64,000 nt of DNA. It comes from an uncultured beta proteobacterium (GTDB lineage: Bacteria; Pseudomonadota; Gammaproteobacteria; Burkholderiales; Burkholderiaceae_C). Shown piece by piece: positions 1-10,577 of the stretch (its first letter is position 1; each line of letters starts with the position of its first letter). A program made the translations under genes and the position numbers. The stretch is from positions 72,920 to 136,919 of the forward strand of contig CAVWNT010000010.1 in assembly GCA_963756415.1 (NCBI GenBank), given 5' to 3'. The notes beneath the pieces were generated by a model that saw only the letters and a program-made list of their open reading frames with translations, did not search any database and was not told the DNA's origin.

Positions 1-2181
<2,181 letters not shown>

Positions 2182-2185
<4 letters not shown>

Positions 2186-3669
2186 GGCCCGCCGACCAAG
2201 CCGACGACGAATCGCTGGACCCGGCCGACTGGCAGCAGTTCCGCGCGCTGGCGCACAAGATGGTCGATGCCGCGGTCGACAAGATGCAAGGCGCGCGCGA
2301 GGGCCGCGTCTGGACCGAGTTGCCGCAGCCGATGAAGGCCTCGCTGCAATCCCCGTTGCCCGACCAGGGGCTGGGGCCGGCGCTGACGCAGCAGCGCATC
2401 GAAGCGCTGTTGCCCTATGGCGTGGGCAACACCCATCCGCGCTTCTTCGGCTGGGTGCACGGCAGCGGCACGCCGGGCAACCTGATTGCCGACATCGCCG
2501 CGGCGGCGATGAACGCCAACCTCGGCGGGCGCGACCACGGCGCGATGTATGTCGAAAAGCAGGTGGTCGACTGGTGCCGCGAACTGTTCGGCTTCCCGCA
2601 AGGTTCGAGCGGCCTGGTCGTGTCGGGCACCTCGATCGCGACCGTGATCGCGTTGAAGGTGGCGCGCGACCGCTGCCTGGAATTCACCAGCCGCAAAAGT
2701 GGCATCGGCGCGGCGAAGCTGGTCGGCTACACCTCGACGCAGACCCATTCTTGCGTCGCACGCGCCTTCGACATCCTCGGCCTGGGCTCCGACGCGTTGC
2801 GCCGGATCGCGGTCGACGAGCGCTTCGAGATCGACATCGATGCGCTGAAGTCCGCCCTCGCCGCGGACCGCGCTGCCGGGCTGACGCCGTTTGTCATCGT
2901 CGGCACCGCCGGTGCGGTCAACGTCGGCGCCATCGACGACCTGGACGCGCTGGCCGACCTCGCCGCCGCCGAACGGCTGTGGCTGCATGTCGACGGCGCG
3001 TTCGGCGCCTGCGGCGTGCTCAGCGAGCGGCTGCGTCCGCGCCTGAGCGGACTGAAGCGCGCCGATTCGCTGGCCGTCGATTTCCACAAGTGGCTGCATG
3101 TCAACTACGACGCCGGCCTGGTGCTGATCCGCTCGGAGCCGGCGCACCGGCAAGCGTTTTCCGAGCGGCCCGACTACCTGAAGGGCGCCGAGCGCGGCCT
3201 GGCCGCCGGCAACCCGTGGCCGGTCGAATACGGCCCCGAACTGTCGCGCGGCTTTCGCGCACTGAAGATCTGGACCCAGTTCGCCGAACACGGCAGCGAC
3301 AAGCTCGGCCGAATGATCACGCGCAACTGCGAACAGGCGGCCTACCTGGCGCAGCAGGTGACGGCCCACCCGAACATGGCGCTGCTGGCGCCGGTGGCGA
3401 TGAACATCTGCTGCTTCTGTTATGTCGATGCGGGGTTGGCGTTGCCGGCGCTGGACCGTCTGAACGACGAGATCGTGATCCAGTTGCAGCTGCAGGGCAT
3501 CGCCGCGCCGTCGACCACGCTGATCCACGGCCGCACGGCGATCCGGGTCAACATCACCAATCACCGCACCCGCTTTGCCGATCTCGACCTGCTGGTGCAC
3601 GAGGTCGAGCGCATCGGTGCGTCGCTGGCTGCCGACGCCAACGCGGCGCTGCATAGGCCCGACGCCTGA
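2182..3669 (+). CDS. Group II PLP-dependent amino-acid decarboxylase
   Basis: ATGA overlap with the upstream gene. Motifs HPRFFGW, SGTSIAT, WLHVDGAFG, ADSLAVDFHKWLH and SRGFRALKIW. Confidence 0.88.
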
Positions 3670-3683
3670 GCCGGCGCTGAGCC

Positions 3684-5411
3684 TCAGCGCCGGGCGTGGC
3701 CGCCGATCATCTGCAGGATCTCGTGGAACACGCGGTTGCCCGGCGGCGCCGACAGGTCCAGCGCCTGGCCGCGGCTGTAGTACGGGCTCAGGTCGAGGCC
3801 GACGCCGATGCCGCAGATCTCGACCTGGCCGCTGCGCTCCAGGCGCTGACACGACGTCGCGCAGGTGATGGTCGAGGTAGTGCGCGTCGTTGGCCCGGTG
3901 CGTCGCGCTGTCCATCGGGCTGCCGTCGGAGACGACGAGCAGGATGCGGCGCTGCTCGCCACGGCCCTGCATGCGCTGGCAGGCCCAGTCGACCGCCTCG
4001 CCGTCGATGCCTTCGCGGAACAGGTCGGCCTTCAGCAGCGCGGCGATGTCGCGGCGGGCGCGCCGCCACGGCGTGTCGGCGGCCTTGAACACCAGGTGGC
4101 AGACCTCGTTCAGCCGCCCCGGGTGGCGCGGCCGCCCGGCGCGCTGCCAGTCGCGCTGCGCGCGCCCGCCGTTCCACGCACCGGTGGTGAAGCCGAGGAT
4201 TTCGCTGCTGACACCGGCCATCTCGAGCGCGCGCACGAAGACATCGATCAGCACCGCCACCGGCTCGATGTGCTGCTTCATCGACCCGGAGCAATCGATC
4301 AGGAAGCTGACCAGGCAATCGGCCAGCGGCTGCGGGCGGTCGATGCGGAACAGGCGCCGTTCGGTCGGCGAGCTGATCAGCTGCGCCAGGCTGCGGCCGT
4401 CGACCAGGCCTTCCTCCTGCGCGCCTTCCCAGCCGTCGACGAGCGGGCGCGCCAGCAACGCCCGCAGGTCACGCGCCAGCCGTGACAGGTTGATGCCCTG
4501 CTCGGCGATGCGGCGGTCGAGCCGCTGGCGATAGTCCAGCAGCAGCGCACGCCGCACCAGCGAGCCGGCATTCACCTCGCGGTCGTAGGCGCGCGTGAAG
4601 ACGCGGTAGCCGCCGGCGGCCTCGTCTAGCACCTTGCTGCGGCCCGCGTCGGCCACCGCAAAGCCGTCGTTCTCGTCGCCGTCGAGATCGAGCAGCAGGC
4701 TGAACAGGTTGCGGCGCGCATCGTCGCTGTCGTCGCCGCGCTCGGCGTCGTCGCTTTCGTCCTCGCGCTCGGCCATCAGCTCGGCCACGCGGCGCGCGAT
4801 CGCCAGCGCGTGCGCGCGCGTACGCGGCCTGGTCGAGCCGCGCGCGGCGCAGCCCCGCCAGGTCGTGGCCGATGTGCGGCGACGAGCATGCCGCGCGTGC
4901 CCTCGATCAGGTCTTCGGTGGCCTCGACCACCGGCTCGCCGCCGACGCGCGAGCGGCACACCTGCGCCACCGTGTACAGCAGCAGCCCGCGCGTGCTCTC
5001 GTTCAGGCCGCTGTCGTGATACGCCGCCGACCAGCGCTCGAAGCGATGGCGCAGGTTGCGGCGCAGACCCGGCATGTCGGCCGGCGCCTGCGCCTCGACG
5101 CGGAACTGCTCGAGCAGATCGAACACCAGCCGCTGCACCGGATCGGCGGGGCACAGGCCGGCGTGCAGTTCGGCATCGGAGCGCGCCAGGCGCAGCGCCA
5201 GGCCGTCGGCGGCGCCGCGAAACGATGCCAGATCGTCGTCGTCGAGCGACGGGTGCAGGTGCGGTGCGAAACGCGGCAGCGCGCGGGTGCCGCGGTGCAG
5301 CCGCTGGCCGCGGAAGTGCAGGTCGGCATCGCCGACGAGCGCGCGGATCGTCGCCGCGCACAGCTCCTCGAGCTTCTGCTGGTGGCGGGCGCGCGCCTGT
5401 GCCTGACCCAT
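3684..5411 (-). CDS. CobT-like von Willebrand factor A (vWA) protein, frameshifted in this sequence
   Basis: CobT-like N-terminus (FRGAADGLAL...LEQFRVE), an acidic linker, the MIDAS motif LIDCSGSM, EILGFTTGAWNGG, PGRLN and SDGSPMD. Split across frames. Confidence 0.8.
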
Positions 5412-5435
5412 GCTGCTGCGTGCGGTGAGCAGCGG

Positions 5436-6416
5436 CTAAGAAGCGTCGGCCGCCGGCCGGTAGGACTCGGCGAGCTCGCCGTCGAAGCAGCGCTGGTAGT
5501 ACTCGGCCACGATCGGCCGTTCGGCGTCGTCGCACTTGTTCAGGAACGAGAAGCGGAACGCGATTTCCGGGTCGCGGAAGATCTCGCAGTTCTCGGCCCA
5601 GGTGATCACCGTGCGCGGCGACATCAGGGTCGACAGGTCGCCGGCGGCGAAGCCCTTGCGCGTCATGTCGGCCACCGCGACCATCTGCTCGATGTGCGCG
5701 CGCCCGCGCGGGTTGTTCTTGCCCGGCACGCGCGCCAGCACGATCGCGACCTCTTCGTCGCGCGGCAGGTAGTTCAGCGCCGCGACGATGTTCCAGCGGT
5801 CGATCTGCGCATGGTTGAGCCGCTGCACGCCGTGGTACAGGCCGTTCAGGTTGCCCAGGCCGACCGTGTTCGAGGTCGCGAACAGGCGGAAGTACGGGTG
5901 CGGCGTGATGACCGTGTTCTGGTCCATCAAGGTGAACTTGCCGTCGCGCTCGAGGATGCGCTGGATCACGAACATCACGTCGGGCCGGCCGGCATCGTAT
6001 TCGTCGAAGACCAGCGCCACCGGCCGCCGCAGCGACCACGGCACGATGCCCTCCTGGAACTCGGTCACCTGCTGGCCGTCGCGCAGCACCACCGCATCCT
6101 TGCCGACCAGATCGAGCCGGCTGATGTGGGCATCGAGGTTGACGCGCACGCAGGGCCAGTTCAGGCGCGCCGCCACCTGCTCGATGTGCGTCGACTTGCC
6201 GGTGCCGTGCAGGCCCTGCACCATCACGCGGCGGTTGCGCGTGAAGCCGGCCAGCAGCGCCAGCGTGACCTCCGGGTTGAAGCGGTAGACCGTGTCGATC
6301 TCGGGCACATGCTCGTCGCGTTCGGCGAACGCGGGCACCTGCATGTCGGTGTCGATGCCGAAGACCTCACGCACCGACAGCTGGCGGTCGGGCTCCTTGA
6401 CGCTGATGTCGGCCAT
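5436..6416 (-). CDS. CobS-like MoxR-family AAA+ ATPase
   Basis: Intact 326 aa. Walker [10 protein letters not shown], Walker [45 protein letters not shown] upstream. Confidence 0.9.
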
Positions 6417-6440
6417 GGCCAGCTCCTTGGGTTGACGAAC

Positions 6441-6583
6441 AGGCTAACAAGCCGGCGCAGGCCGACGTAGAGCCAGTTGGCATCGATCGTGGGGCCCAGC
6501 GCCGCGCGGCGAGGGCGCCGATCGCTGGCGCCTACGAAAGCGGCGAACTGGCCCTATGGCGCGGGCCGCACAGCTAATACTGT
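6441..6583. promoter_or_regulatory. Divergent promoter with four TauR/MocR-like CTGG(N)CCTA boxes and two -10 elements
   Basis: Minus-strand boxes AACTGGCTCTA (6468-6478) and CTGGGCCCCA (6490-6499). Plus-strand boxes CTGGCGCCTA (6525-6534) and AACTGGCCCTA (6546-6556). Each pair has a 23-bp period. The -10-like hexamers TAGCCT (minus, 6441-6446) and TACTGT (plus, 6578-6583) both lie 21 nt from their proximal box. Confidence 0.6.
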
Positions 6584-6699
6584 AAGAGCCCTGGAGACAG
6601 GCCGGCCGGCAGCCAGCGGCCGGCGACCTTCTCCACCAGCCCCGCTGCCGGCCAAGACCCGGCTTCATCGATCTCGAGCGCAGACCCACAGGAGCAGAC

Positions 6700-8523
6700 A
6701 TGGCAGCCAAAGAATCCGCATCCACCCGTTCGGTGCCCACCGGAGCGACCCGCATGACCCCCAGCGAGGCCTTCGTCGAGACGATGGTGGCCAACGGCGT
6801 GACCGACATGTTCGGCATCATGGGCTCGGCCTTCATGGATGCGATGGACATCTTCGCGCCGGCCGGCATCCGCCTGATCCCGGTGGTGCACGAGCAGGGC
6901 GCGGGCCACATGGCCGACGGTTATGCCCGCGTCTCGGGCCGCCACGGCGTGGTCATCGGCCAGAACGGCCCCGGCATCAGCAACTGCGTCACGGCCATCG
7001 CCGCGGCCTACTGGGCGCACAGCCCGGTGGTGATCGTGACGCCCGAGACCGGCACCATGGGCATCGGCCTGGGCGGCTTCCAGGAAGCCAATCAGCTGCC
7101 GATGTTCCAGGAGTTCACCCGCTACCAGGGCCACGTCACGCACCCGGCGCGCATGGCCGAGTACACCGGCCGCTGCTTCGACCGTGCCATGTCCGACATG
7201 GGCCCGACGCAGCTGAACATCCCGCGCGACTACTTCTACGGCGACATCACCTGCGAGATCCCGAAGCCGATGCGCGTCGAGCGCGGCGCCGGCGGCGACG
7301 AAGAGCCTGAAGGCGGCGGCCGAGCTGCTGGCCAACGCCAAGTTCCCGGTCATCCTGTCCGGCGGCGGCGTGGTGATGGGCGATGCGGTCGAGGAGTGCA
7401 AGGCGCTGGCCGAGCGCCTGGGCGCACCGGTCGTCAACGGCTACCTGCGCAACGATTCCTTCCCCGCCAGCCACCCGCTGTGGTGCGGCCCGCTCGGCTA
7501 CCAGGGCTCGAAGGCGGCGATGAAGCTGATCGCGAAGGCCGACGTGGTGATCGCGCTGGGCTCGCGCATGGGCCCCTTCGGCACCCTGCCGCAGCACGGC
7601 CTGGACTACTGGCCGAAGGACGGCCAAGATCATCCAGGTCGAGGCCGACCACACCAACCTCGGGCTGGTGAAGAAGATCTCGGTCGGCATCTGCGGCGAC
7701 GCCAAGGCCGCCGCCACCGCGCTGACCGAGCATGCTCGGCAACCGCAAGCTGGCCTGCGACGAGACCAAGGATGCGCGCGCCAAGGAAATCGCCGCCGAG
7801 AAGAAGGCCTGGGAGGCCGAACTCGATGGCTGGACGCACGAGAAGGATTCGTTCAGCCTCGACATGATCGAGGAGAACAAGCAGGAGAAGCCCTTCTCCG
7901 GTGGCGAGTACCTGCACCCGCGGCAGGTGCTGCGCGAGCTCGAGAAGGCGATGCCGCCGGACGTGATGGTCTCGACCGACATCGGCAACATCAACTCGGT
8001 GGCCAACAGCTACCTGCGCTTCGACAAGCCGCGCAGCTTCTTCGCGGCGATGAGCTTCGGCAACTGCGGCTACGCCTGCCCGACCATCATCGGCGCCAAG
8101 GTGGCCGCGCCGCATCGCCCGGCGGTGTCGTATGCCGGTGACGGCGCGTGGGGCATGAGCCTGATGGAAACCATGACCTGCGTGCGCCACAACATCCCGG
8201 TGACCGCGGTGGTGTTCCACAACCGGCAGTGGGGCGCCGAGAAGAAGAACCAGGTCGACTTCTACAACCGCCGCTTCGTCGCCGGCGAACTCGACAACCA
8301 GAGCTTCGCCGCGATCGCCAAGGCGATGGGTGCCGAGGCCATCGTCGTCGACAAGCTCGAGGACGTCGGCCCGGCGCTGAAGAAGGCGATCGACATGCAG
8401 ATGAACGAGGGCAAGACCTGCGTCATCGAGATCATGTGCACGCGCGAACTCGGCGACCCGTTCCGCCGCGACGCGCTGGCCAAGCCGGTGCGCTATCTCG
8501 AAAAGTACCGCGACTACGTCTGA
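6700..8523 (+). CDS. xsc: Sulfoacetaldehyde acetyltransferase (ThDP-dependent), frameshifted in this sequence
   Basis: MTPSEAFVET, FGIMGSAFMD, HEQGAGHMADGYARVSGR, QNGPGISNC, ThDP motif GDGAWGMS...HNRQWGAEKKNQ, C-terminal ELGDPFRRDAL. RBS AGGAG. Confidence 0.95.
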
Positions 8524-8543
8524 GCCGCGCGCCGGTGCCCGCG

Positions 8544-9518
8544 ATGAACGAGTCCCTCGATGTCGATGCGCACCCGCGCCTGGCCGCGCTGGTGCAGCGG
8601 GCGCGCGCCAGCGCGGCCGACGCGCCGCCCGCGATCGCGCTGGCCTACCCGTGCGACGCGCTGGCGATCGAGGCGGCAGCGGGCATGCAGGCGCTCGGGC
8701 TGGCGCGGCCGCTGCTGGTCGGGCCGCGCGAGCGCATCGTGCGCGCGGCCGCGTCGGCGCAGCAGGACGCCGGCGCCTTCGAGATCGTCGACACCGGCGA
8801 CACGCGCCGCCGCAGCGGCGACACGGGCCGCGCAGCTGGCCCGCGACGGCGTCGTCGGCGCGCTGATGAAGGGATCGCTGCACACCGACGAACTGCTGGC
8901 GGCGGTGGTCGCCAAGGCGAACGGCCTGCGCGGCGAGCGCGCGCATCAGCCATGCCTTCGTCTTCGACCTGCCGCGCTATCCGAAGCTGCTGGCGCTGGC
9001 CGACTGCGTCGTCAACATCGCGCCCGACCTGCGCACCAAGACCAACATCCTGGCCAACGCGATCGAGCTGCTGCAACACCTGGGCATCGCGCAGCCGAAG
9101 GTCGCCATCGTCGCGGCCGTCGAAACGGTCAACCCGGCGATCCCGGCCACCGTCGATGCGCAGGCACTGGTGGCGATGGCACGCGACGGCGCCTGGCCCG
9201 GCGCGCATCGTCGAAGGACCGTTCGGCTTCGACAACGCGATCTCGGCGCAGGCCGCACGCATCAAGGGCATCGAATCGCAGGTGGCCGGCGACGCCGACC
9301 TGCTGCTGGTGCCCGACCTGAACGCCGGCAACATGCTGTACAAGAGTTTCAACTACATCGGCGGCGGCGATTGCGCCGGCCTGGTGCTCGGCGCCAAGGT
9401 GCCGATCGTGCTGACCTCGCGCGCCGACTCGGCCGCCTCGCGCATCGCCTCGCTGGCGCTGGCGGTGTTGCTGGTCGCCAGCCGTGGCGCAGCGGCAGCC
9501 GCGTCGGGCGCGGCATGA
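8544..9518 (+). CDS. pta: Phosphate acetyl/butyryltransferase, frameshifted
   Basis: LMKGSLHTDELL, EGPFGFDNAIS, VAGDADLLLVPDLNAGNMLYK, LGAKVPIVLTSRADS. Directly downstream of xsc. Confidence 0.85.
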   Translation: MNESLDVDAHPRLAALVQRARASAADAPPAIALAYPCDALAIEAAAGMQALGLARPLLVGPRERIVRAAASAQQDAGAFEIVDTGDTRRRSGDTGRAAGPRRRRRRADEGIAAHRRTAGGGGRQGERPARRARASAMPSSSTCRAIRSCWRWPTASSTSRPTCAPRPTSWPTRSSCCNTWASRSRRSPSSRPSKRSTRRSRPPSMRRHWWRWHATAPGPARIVEGPFGFDNAISAQAARIKGIESQVAGDADLLLVPDLNAGNMLYKSFNYIGGGDCAGLVLGAKVPIVLTSRADSAASRIASLALAVLLVASRGAAAAASGAA

Positions 9519-10577
9519 GCGCGACGCCGACCCATCCGCCCAGGGCCTCGATGACGCCGGGCGCGGCGCTGCGCCGCGTGCAGATGGTGACGCCGGGCGT
9601 CGGGCTGGCCGCGGTGATCGCGCTCGCGGCCACCGCGGTGTCGACGCTGCACGGCGGGCCGCAGCTGCTGTATGCGCTGCTGATGGGCGTTGCCTTCCAC
9701 TACCTGAGCCACGAGGCGCGCACCAAGCCGGGCATCGAGTTCTGCAGCCGTGCCGTGCTGCGGCTGGGCGTCGGCCTGCTCGGCGCGCGCATCACCGCGA
9801 CGCAGATTGCCGGGCTGGGCTGGGAAACCGCGCTGACCGTGATCGCGGCGCTGGTGACCACGATGCTGTGCGGCCTGCTGATCGGCAAGCGGCTGGGCAT
9901 GACCCGCGCCCAGCGGGTGCTGTCCGGTGGCGCGGTGGCGATCTGCGGCGCCTCGGCCGCGCTGGCGATCTCGGCGGTGCTGCCGCGCGAGACGGGACGG
10001 CGACCGCTTCACGTTGATGGTCGTCGTCACGGTGACGGTGCTGTCGACCCTGGCGATGGTCTTCTACCCGCTGATCGCGCGGCTGCTGCAGCTGCCGCCC
10101 GAGATGGCCGGCCTGTTTCTCGGCGGCACCATCCACGACGTGGCCCAGGTCGTCGGCGCCGGCTACATGCTCAACCACGAGACCGGCGACATCGCCACCA
10201 TCGTCAAGCTGTTTCGCGTCTCGATGTTGACGGTGGTGGTGGTGATCGTCGCGGCGGCCTTCAAGAAGTCGCGCGAGCGTGCGCTGGCCGAGGCCACGCC
10301 CGGGCGCACGCCGGCGCGGCAGGCGCTGGTGCCGTGGTTCCTGTGGCTGTTCGTCGCCATGGTGCTGCTCAATTCGCTGGGCGCCTTCGCGGCGCCGCTG
10401 CAGGCCGCGCTGAACGACGTGTCGCGCGCCTGCCTGGTGGTGGCGATCGCCGCCCTCGGCATGAAGACCAGCTTCGCCCAGCTGGCGCGCGCCGGCTGGC
10501 GCCCGCTGGCGCTGATCGTCGTCGAGACGGTGTGGATCGCCGCGTTCGTGCTGGCGGTGATCGTGCTGCGGCACTGA
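9515..10577 (+). CDS. YeiH/TauZ-type putative sulfate/sulfite exporter, frameshifted
   Basis: Multiple hydrophobic helices with LRLGVGLLG, GGAVAICGASAALA, GGTIHDVAQVVGAG and IVKLFRV. ATGA overlap with pta. Confidence 0.85.

Follow-up and report, generated by a model that had tools for sequence, protein, structure and literature searches.

A CobS/CobT-like gene pair linked to one clade of sulfoacetaldehyde acetyltransferase genes, a candidate ATP-driven helper of sulfonate desulfonation

In the CbbQ/CbbO Rubisco activase, a hexamer of a MoxR-type AAA+ ATPase and one von Willebrand factor A (vWA) adaptor remodel an enzyme with ATP; the system is specific to some forms of its client. The NorQ/NorD and CoxD/CoxE maturation systems, which build metal centres, are likewise AAA+/vWA pairs encoded with their client enzymes. 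Diol and glycerol dehydratase reactivases remove damaged cofactor, in an ATP-dependent manner, from an enzyme that itself harms this cofactor during turnover; they differ in ATPase fold (Hsp70-like) and cofactor (adenosylcobalamin) and offer a functional analogy only. Here we describe a CobS/CobT-like pair divergent from xsc, the gene for sulfoacetaldehyde acetyltransferase, in a 64,000-nucleotide stretch (the window) of contig CAVWNT010000010.1 (assembly GCA_963756415.1, positions 72,920 to 136,919), from an uncultured beta proteobacterium. Both proteins are homologous to those of the CobNST motor (PDB 9ujv and 9uka series; 10.64898/2026.07.21.739949 and 10.64898/2026.10.09.757910, as far as their available text goes). 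In the accessible part of the CobSTN preprint, the adaptor shaft enters the CobS ring, and CobN lies on the opposite side, beside the MIDAS (the metal ion-dependent adhesion site).

Xsc is a hub of C2-sulfonate desulfonation and is described as needing thiamine diphosphate (ThDP) in the available text of PMC6453916. A first-pass annotation of the window had proposed that the pair serves the sulfonate pathway, with Xsc the most plausible client. This interpretation is supported, since neither phylogeny nor co-occurrence with cobN and xsc refuted it. Four tests (CobS score, clade, co-occurrence with cobN and MIDAS residues) place the pair outside cobaltochelatase CobST, to which it is homologous, and it accompanies a single clade of Xsc (clade A), for which it may act as an activase. 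Our literature search found no paper describing a cobS/cobT-type pair with xsc, although a passing mention is possible and much classic taurine-degradation work lay beyond the search. We know of no earlier AAA+/vWA system with a ThDP-dependent client; the pair would be the first.

Relation of the pair to CobST

The CobS-like protein, encoded by a gene present once in the genome, scores 528.2 bits against TIGR01650, narrowly under the equivalog cut-off of 558.55, and matches PDB 9ujv with an E value of 1e-142. Walker A (residues 68-76), Walker B (D138-E139), N183, R207 and R268 agree, at an offset of 3, with the Brucella CobS catalytic set given in the available text of 10.64898/2026.07.21.739949; Walker A and B, sensor 1, arginine finger and sensor 2 are all intact, as in MoxR-type ATPases and in CobS itself. 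The adjoining, co-oriented gene encodes a vWA protein with a DxSxS MIDAS, the layout of a motor gene and its adaptor. This adaptor shares with CobT the order of N-domain, acidic linker, shaft and vWA domain as well as DxSxS and the final MIDAS Asp, and both its N-domain and its shaft-vWA part can be aligned with those of Brucella CobT; a CobT_N match is present in 77 of 81 loci. Pfam matches, motifs and the composition of the linker (Table 1) bear out the first-pass description of a MoxR-type AAA+ protein and a MIDAS vWA protein with an acidic linker, divergent from xsc.

That description did not mention frameshifts. Both genes of the pair are present and cobS is intact, but cobT is split into three pieces, its frame being broken around 4860-4890 and again around 3850, and xsc is broken too. 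Intact orthologues of 571-574 amino acids in two related loci (L003 and L118) align with the window's cobT at 55-70% over three frames, and the window's Xsc pieces are 78-86% identical to the Xsc of L003. Neighbouring Xsc pieces, when joined, reach 743.7 bits against TIGR03457 (cut-off 676.4), compared with 339 and 414 bits for single pieces. Because the neighbouring pta and YeiH-type genes (four and two pieces) and, elsewhere in the genome, rpoB (two frames; G000:C2:180176-184250) are likewise broken, the breaks in cobT and xsc are probably assembly errors. Sequencing runs matched no more than 18% of the sequence words. The frequent breaks suggest an indel-rich assembly, in which the broken genes of the window are not to be taken as pseudogenes.

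The adaptor differs from CobT where a client would be expected to bind. The available text of 10.64898/2026.07.21.739949 gives the Brucella MIDAS residues as D422, S424, S426, N518 and D546. Among xsc-clade adaptors the D, S, S and D are invariant (79/79 rows), whereas the N518 position is Gly in 78 of 79 rows, as in the REGIDGE motif of the window, compared with Asn in 21 of 21 alphaproteobacterial (alpha) rows. Positions 371, 462-463, 497 and 534-538 also carry diagnostic changes, and in place of the GRP that follows DxSxS there is a different, shorter sequence; of 13 diagnostic columns, 9 fall in or adjoin MIDAS-face motifs. Judging from vWA topology, these changes would share the client-binding face, and by sequence comparison the adaptor has a rebuilt MIDAS face. 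Its identity to alpha-type rows is 21% in the N-domain, 27% in the shaft and 42% in the vWA domain, against roughly 65-70% for CobS; a conserved motor with a diverged adaptor is what a change of client would be expected to produce.

Genomes were sampled from the window's own family (250), at the level of order (200) and class (80), and from the Alphaproteobacteria (151). Three CobS trees, with support by the Shimodaira-Hasegawa-like approximate likelihood ratio test (SH-aLRT), gave the pair its own branch outside canonical CobST at values of 95-99, as the first-pass annotation had anticipated. In the first (115 rows, order-sample rows absent), non-alpha rows split from 34 alpha rows, namely the 30 nearest ones in the class sample together with four from Acetobacter, at SH-aLRT 99. 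The second, of 109 rows, took in divergent alpha rows, a pair of distant outgroups and roughly half of the xsc rows; it united 50 xsc-linked rows in one branch (SH-aLRT 95) and placed a copy from an order-sample genome (G136) and urease-linked copies among the alpha rows. In the third (75 rows, about a quarter of the xsc rows plus class-sample copies), three copies of clade-A genomes that are unlinked from xsc joined the xsc branch (SH-aLRT 98), and two from xsc-negative genomes joined the alpha rows.

The whole genome (75.9% complete) yielded no CobN (PF02514), no CbiC/CobH (PF02570) and no CobI scoring over its cut-off, which extends the earlier report that the window holds no cobN. CobN/BchH-family genes occur in 88 of the 250 family-sample genomes and are no commoner with the pair (8/24) than without it (80/226); 16 of the 24 pair-bearing genomes, which are near-complete, have no CobN-family match. 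The pair is thus found in genomes without cobN, as had been predicted. Its neighbours are xsc genes, unlike those of Sinorhizobium cobST (bolA and a DnaJ-domain gene). It is hardly credible, then, that the two genes simply encode a cobaltochelatase motor that partners CobN in making B12. Its best family matches are indeed CobS and CobT, the genome is incomplete, and eight pair-bearing family genomes do carry a CobN-family gene; against this stand the 16 pair-bearing genomes without the CobN family and the 80 CobN-family genomes without the pair, together with the separate clade, the replaced MIDAS Asn and the CobS score below the equivalog cut-off.

Canonical CobST itself is only partly tied to CobN. 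Among the 151 alphaproteobacterial genomes, cobS occurs in 124 and the CobN family in 56, all among the 124; one of the 124 (G483) is an unpublished genome that contributes to these tallies alone. Since 68 of the 124 cobS genomes are without a CobN-family gene, and cobS is kept as a single copy even in genomes of 1.2-1.7 Mb, canonical CobST likely has a second, wider job. On the Pandoraea oxalativorans plasmid pPO70-1 (L206:3392-10850), an alpha-type cobS-cobT lies directly behind ureG in a urease cluster; no ureE or ureF is annotated in that stretch. This is another context outside B12 synthesis, possibly maturation of a nickel centre.

Distribution of the pair with xsc

Xsc proteins paired with cobS/cobT form one clade (support of 100 in one tree and 99 in another). 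This clade A, which may, we presume, be a subgroup named in the early Xsc literature, also contains four pair-less exceptions and a marine branch. In the family sample, xsc occurs in 26 genomes and cobS in 24, all within those 26, whereas none of the 224 xsc-negative genomes has cobS; in 23 of the 24, both genes lie on one contig at most 5 kb apart. The linkage to xsc rather than to cobN expected from the first-pass reading is seen here. The order sample includes 30 genomes with xsc over cut-off, seven at more than 1020 bits and 23 at 883-980 bits. Six of seven clade-A genomes have the pair at most 4 kb from xsc, and none of the 23 with other Xsc carries an xsc-clade cobS; G136, the only one of these to have cobS, carries it 10 kb from cobN and on a contig different from that of xsc. 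The class sample holds four clade-A xsc genomes, three of them with cobS away from xsc, two other-xsc genomes without cobS, and two xsc-negative genomes whose cobS falls in the alpha clade. With the three samples pooled and G145 entered a single time, the pair occurs in 32 of the 36 clade-A genomes. The link is confined to this one clade. Of the 151 alphaproteobacterial genomes, 19 have xsc, and the 18 full-length copies fall outside clade A.

The same pattern appears at the level of loci. Among the 80 best relatives from about 600 candidates scanned in GTDB contigs, xsc lies at most 8 kb from cobS in 57. Of the 47 non-alpha loci of at least 15 kb, 38 contain xsc, 36 an IclR-type gene, 26 tauX and 25 tauY; no enzyme gene other than xsc comes close to being universal next to the pair. 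Cultured hosts of the locus include Variovorax paradoxus ISL-3 (L009) and Cupriavidus basilensis OR16 (L052). Nine of these loci lack xsc; six that were checked, plus one shorter locus, come from beta/gamma genomes with a high-scoring xsc elsewhere in every case (7/7). A reverse search that started from Xsc gave 80 metagenome loci, 55 of them at 80% Xsc identity or more, and among these 55 the pair is present in every locus that extends 5 kb to either side (18 of 18) and in 32 of 36 with 3 kb upstream. Xsc and CobT distances are correlated (Mantel rho 0.44, permutation maximum 0.26), which shared species ancestry explains equally well and which we do not count as support.

One CobS clade matches one Xsc clade, so a single capture of the pair beside an ancestral clade-A xsc, followed by carriage through linkage with little functional tie, would suffice to produce the pattern; loss of the pair in 4 of 36 genomes and its absence beside xsc in the marine branch would fit such a history. 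We nevertheless consider it very unlikely. The pair is retained where it is unlinked from xsc, and association is favoured over hitch-hiking because the unlinked cobS copies of clade-A genomes fall in the xsc clade and the copies of xsc-negative genomes in the alpha clade. No placed full-length copy without clade-A xsc was found in any sample, the MIDAS and ATPase residues are invariant, and the pair survives at least four gene orders. In 69 loci, cobS and xsc are divergent with a gap of less than 500 bp in 12, 500-1300 bp in 34 and more than 1300 bp in 5, while xsc lies downstream in 15 and on the same strand in 3. A gap of 500-1300 bp corresponds in length to the IclR-type gene that the checked loci carry at this place.

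It is also unlikely, if less so, that the pair serves the pathway through a client other than Xsc, such as a sulfite-sensitive housekeeping enzyme, a component of sulfite oxidation, Pta, TauXY or the IclR regulator. A physical client cannot be read from gene context, and the alpha-type pair kept without the CobN family in 68 of 124 genomes implies that the protein family has clients beyond CobN; the IclR-type gene, moreover, is nearly as frequent in the long loci as xsc. No other enzyme gene, however, matches the distribution of the pair. Of 22 loci of other Xsc clades, which are without the pair, 15 carry an IclR homologue, whereas the window has none. A general role in sulfite stress would not be confined to one Xsc clade, and co-folding (below) gives weak support to Xsc. 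As obligate clients, the IclR regulator, Pta, TauXY, HpsN and the YeiH-type exporter are rejected by distribution.

Xsc as the candidate client

The adaptor's C-terminal 315 residues were co-folded with full-length Xsc and Mg, using Variovorax proteins (L009) and 47-row alignments from the same loci. The complex scored 0.60, against 0.00 for the best of three controls, with runs agreeing in at least 88% of contacts and a partner predicted local distance difference test (pLDDT) value of at least 82. In a calibration that applies to this case only approximately, 116 of 157 solved complexes reached the mark, as did 2 of 215 mismatches; just 18 of the 157, and both passing mismatches, reached it with a score of 0.60 or under. 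No Xsc structure was found in the PDB by sequence or fold, so recall of a known complex is unlikely. The co-fold of the vWA domain with Xsc, which lies above its controls in a score range where both passing mismatches also fall, lends weak support to binding. The Xsc model (pLDDT 86.5) matches only the general acetohydroxyacid synthase (AHAS)-like fold. Clade-A-specific residues N420, H495 and A516-G517-E518 lie in or beside the ThDP-binding motifs, whose roles we take from the AHAS family, and in a low-confidence loop of the model. An acidic helix-loop of clade-A Xsc (372-392) was considered as a candidate docking site, but co-folding gave no interface, and the loop is short in several clade-A Xsc whose genomes have the pair.

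Xsc is probably the physical client of the pair and, if it is, reactivation is somewhat favoured as the pair's job. We tentatively propose, with a little less than even confidence, that the pair is an ATP-driven activase that grips clade-A Xsc, opens its active site and releases damaged or inhibitory ThDP species. By analogy with the solved CobSTN machine, six CobS-like subunits would form a ring, the N-domain of the adaptor would dock on it with the shaft entering the pore, and the opposite MIDAS face would bind the client; the motor would then use ATP to prise the active site open and free the damaged cofactor. The job would be repair rather than first assembly, and the damage would arise from sulfite set free by Xsc next to its own cofactor. 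Production of sulfite at the ThDP site of Xsc is described in the available text of PMC6453916, and degradation of thiamine by metabisulfite in solution in that of PMC11206890. Several residues specific to clade A sit by the cofactor-binding motifs, so these enzymes may bind the cofactor in a different way and depend on its being forced out. Repair is favoured over obligate assembly because 4 of 36 clade-A genomes keep an intact xsc but not the pair, and other Xsc clades likewise do without it.

This proposal resembles CbbQ/CbbO in its restriction to one form of the client. The sequences are distant (CbbQ, E = 1e-7), the client here would be a ThDP enzyme, and inhibitor release, shown for CbbQ/CbbO, is inferred for the pair. 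NorQ is more distant still (E = 3e-4), and NorQ/NorD and CoxD/CoxE build metal centres whereas Xsc needs ThDP; we know of no metal cluster in Xsc.

Alternatively, the pair could be a maturation chaperone that acts once on clade-A Xsc, loading ThDP/Mg or another cofactor or assembling the oligomer in the manner of NorQ/NorD. The co-occurrence, clade and co-fold evidence and the clade-A residues by the ThDP-binding motifs fit this equally well. We judge it distinctly less probable than repair. ThDP and Mg normally load unaided, the adaptor has lost one MIDAS metal ligand, and the four clade-A genomes that keep intact xsc without the pair fit a helper better than an obligate step. In favour of maturation, metal or cofactor insertion is named in the accessible part of the CobSTN preprint as a common job of MoxR/vWA pairs.

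Several observations weigh against the activase proposal or narrow it. Present data do not separate repair from loading. All Xsc release sulfite, yet of the 23 order-sample genomes that carry Xsc of other clades, 22 gave no match to cobS, and the need cannot therefore be put down to sulfite alone. Four clade-A genomes that are 94-100% complete (G153, G221, G345 and G616) gave no match to the query, and CobT_C was also not found in G153; clade-A Xsc does not strictly require the pair. Among 25 metagenome loci at 75-78% Xsc identity, mostly of low GC, the pair is present in none of nine long loci and in one of the 25 overall. In 24 loci (L241-L271) of the marine, mostly low-GC branch of clade A, which are loci and not whole genomes, no CobS/CobT lies nearby and the acidic loop is shorter. 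Genome G144 has two contig-end CobS fragments that could not be placed, with neither xsc nor CobT_C. Because related genomes are not independent of one another, the co-occurrence counts describe patterns and overstate the number of events; for the same reason the Fisher test, with its p of 2e-31, overstates the association. The trees are quick IQ-TREE searches with SH-aLRT support only.

Spacer, neighbouring genes and implications

The divergent spacer between cobS and xsc is 283 bp long and contains an inverted repeat (Table 1) with 28 of 39 positions paired, exceeding all 40 shuffles (maximum 23). Each arm contains AACTGGCYCTA, similar to the TauR box CTGGACYTAA given in the available text of PMC5320631, and the 11-mer pattern has five matches genome-wide, two of them in this spacer. 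From its sequence, the repeat is likely a MocR/TauR-type operator. No sigma-70 consensus promoter was found in the spacer, and conservation of a TauR-like operator across loci was rejected, because of 86 loci only that of the window has the box pattern upstream of cobS. Of the symmetric shared promoter suggested earlier, the inverted repeat is therefore real, with a symmetry particular to this locus. The accessible text of the TauR regulon paper (PMC5320631) and its one supplement contain no cobS, cobT or chelatase. By eye, the cobS-xsc spacers of L012, L019, L044, L048 and L052 contain AT-rich, GTTCCG/GTACCG-like repeats near both divergent starts, perhaps an IclR-type operator common to both genes.

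Downstream of xsc, assignment of the pta gene rests on homology to related loci and on operon context, which indicate a phosphate acyltransferase. An operon of three genes converges on cobT, and the HpsN-like dehydrogenase it encodes matches a solved sulfopropanediol 3-dehydrogenase (E = 6e-141). As a speculation, the trio may route a C3 sulfonate via an amino-sulfonate to taurine. Locus L033 carries the same trio at 80, 69 and 73% identity. In Acetobacter loci L073, L078 and L079, a pyridoxal phosphate (PLP) decarboxylase 48-49% identical to that of the window is convergent on canonical cobT, a resemblance that is probably coincidence. Just beyond the window edge, the same contig carries tauX, tauY and two MocR/TauR-like genes.

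Table 1. Coordinates, strand and assignment of the features discussed, numbered from the first nucleotide of the window
Feature	Position	Strand	Assignment and remarks
HpsN-like dehydrogenase, DegT-type aminotransferase and PLP decarboxylase	1-3669	+	One operon, convergent on cobT
cobT-like adaptor gene	3684..5411	-	N-domain, acidic linker, shaft, vWA domain; Pfam CobT and CobT_C
MIDAS-bearing core of the adaptor	3916..4296	-	DCSGS 4282-4296, REGIDGE 3997-4017, VSDGSP 3916-3933
Acidic linker of the adaptor	4663..4776	-	16 of 38 residues D or E
cobS-like MoxR-type AAA+ ATPase gene	5436..6416	-	xsc-linked clade; intact, 326 aa; Pfam PF12556 (CobS_N) and PF07728 (AAA_5)
Inverted repeat in the spacer	6463..6561		Arms 6463-6501 and 6523-6561, 39 bp each
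xsc, sulfoacetaldehyde acetyltransferase	6700..8523	+	Clade A, likely client; best family TIGR03457; four pieces, three frame breaks
pta-type phosphate acyltransferase (putative)	8475..9470	+	Four pieces; 52-87% to the L003 homologue
YeiH/TauZ-type putative sulfate exporter	9506..10577	+	Two pieces; TIGR00698

If the proposal is correct, a dedicated helper has been a missing component of the C2-sulfonate desulfonation pathway, and annotations of 'cobalt chelatase' that imply B12 synthesis where none exists would be corrected. In its boldest form, to which we give slightly less credence than to the activase itself, the pair would be the first ATP-driven activase for a ThDP enzyme, a motor derived from CobST whose client face has been rebuilt and which expels the cofactor of clade-A Xsc once sulfite has damaged it. 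The pair gives a handle on the wider puzzle of alphaproteobacterial cobS without a CobN-family gene, and CobST would then be a general remodelling motor for which cobalt chelation is only one use.

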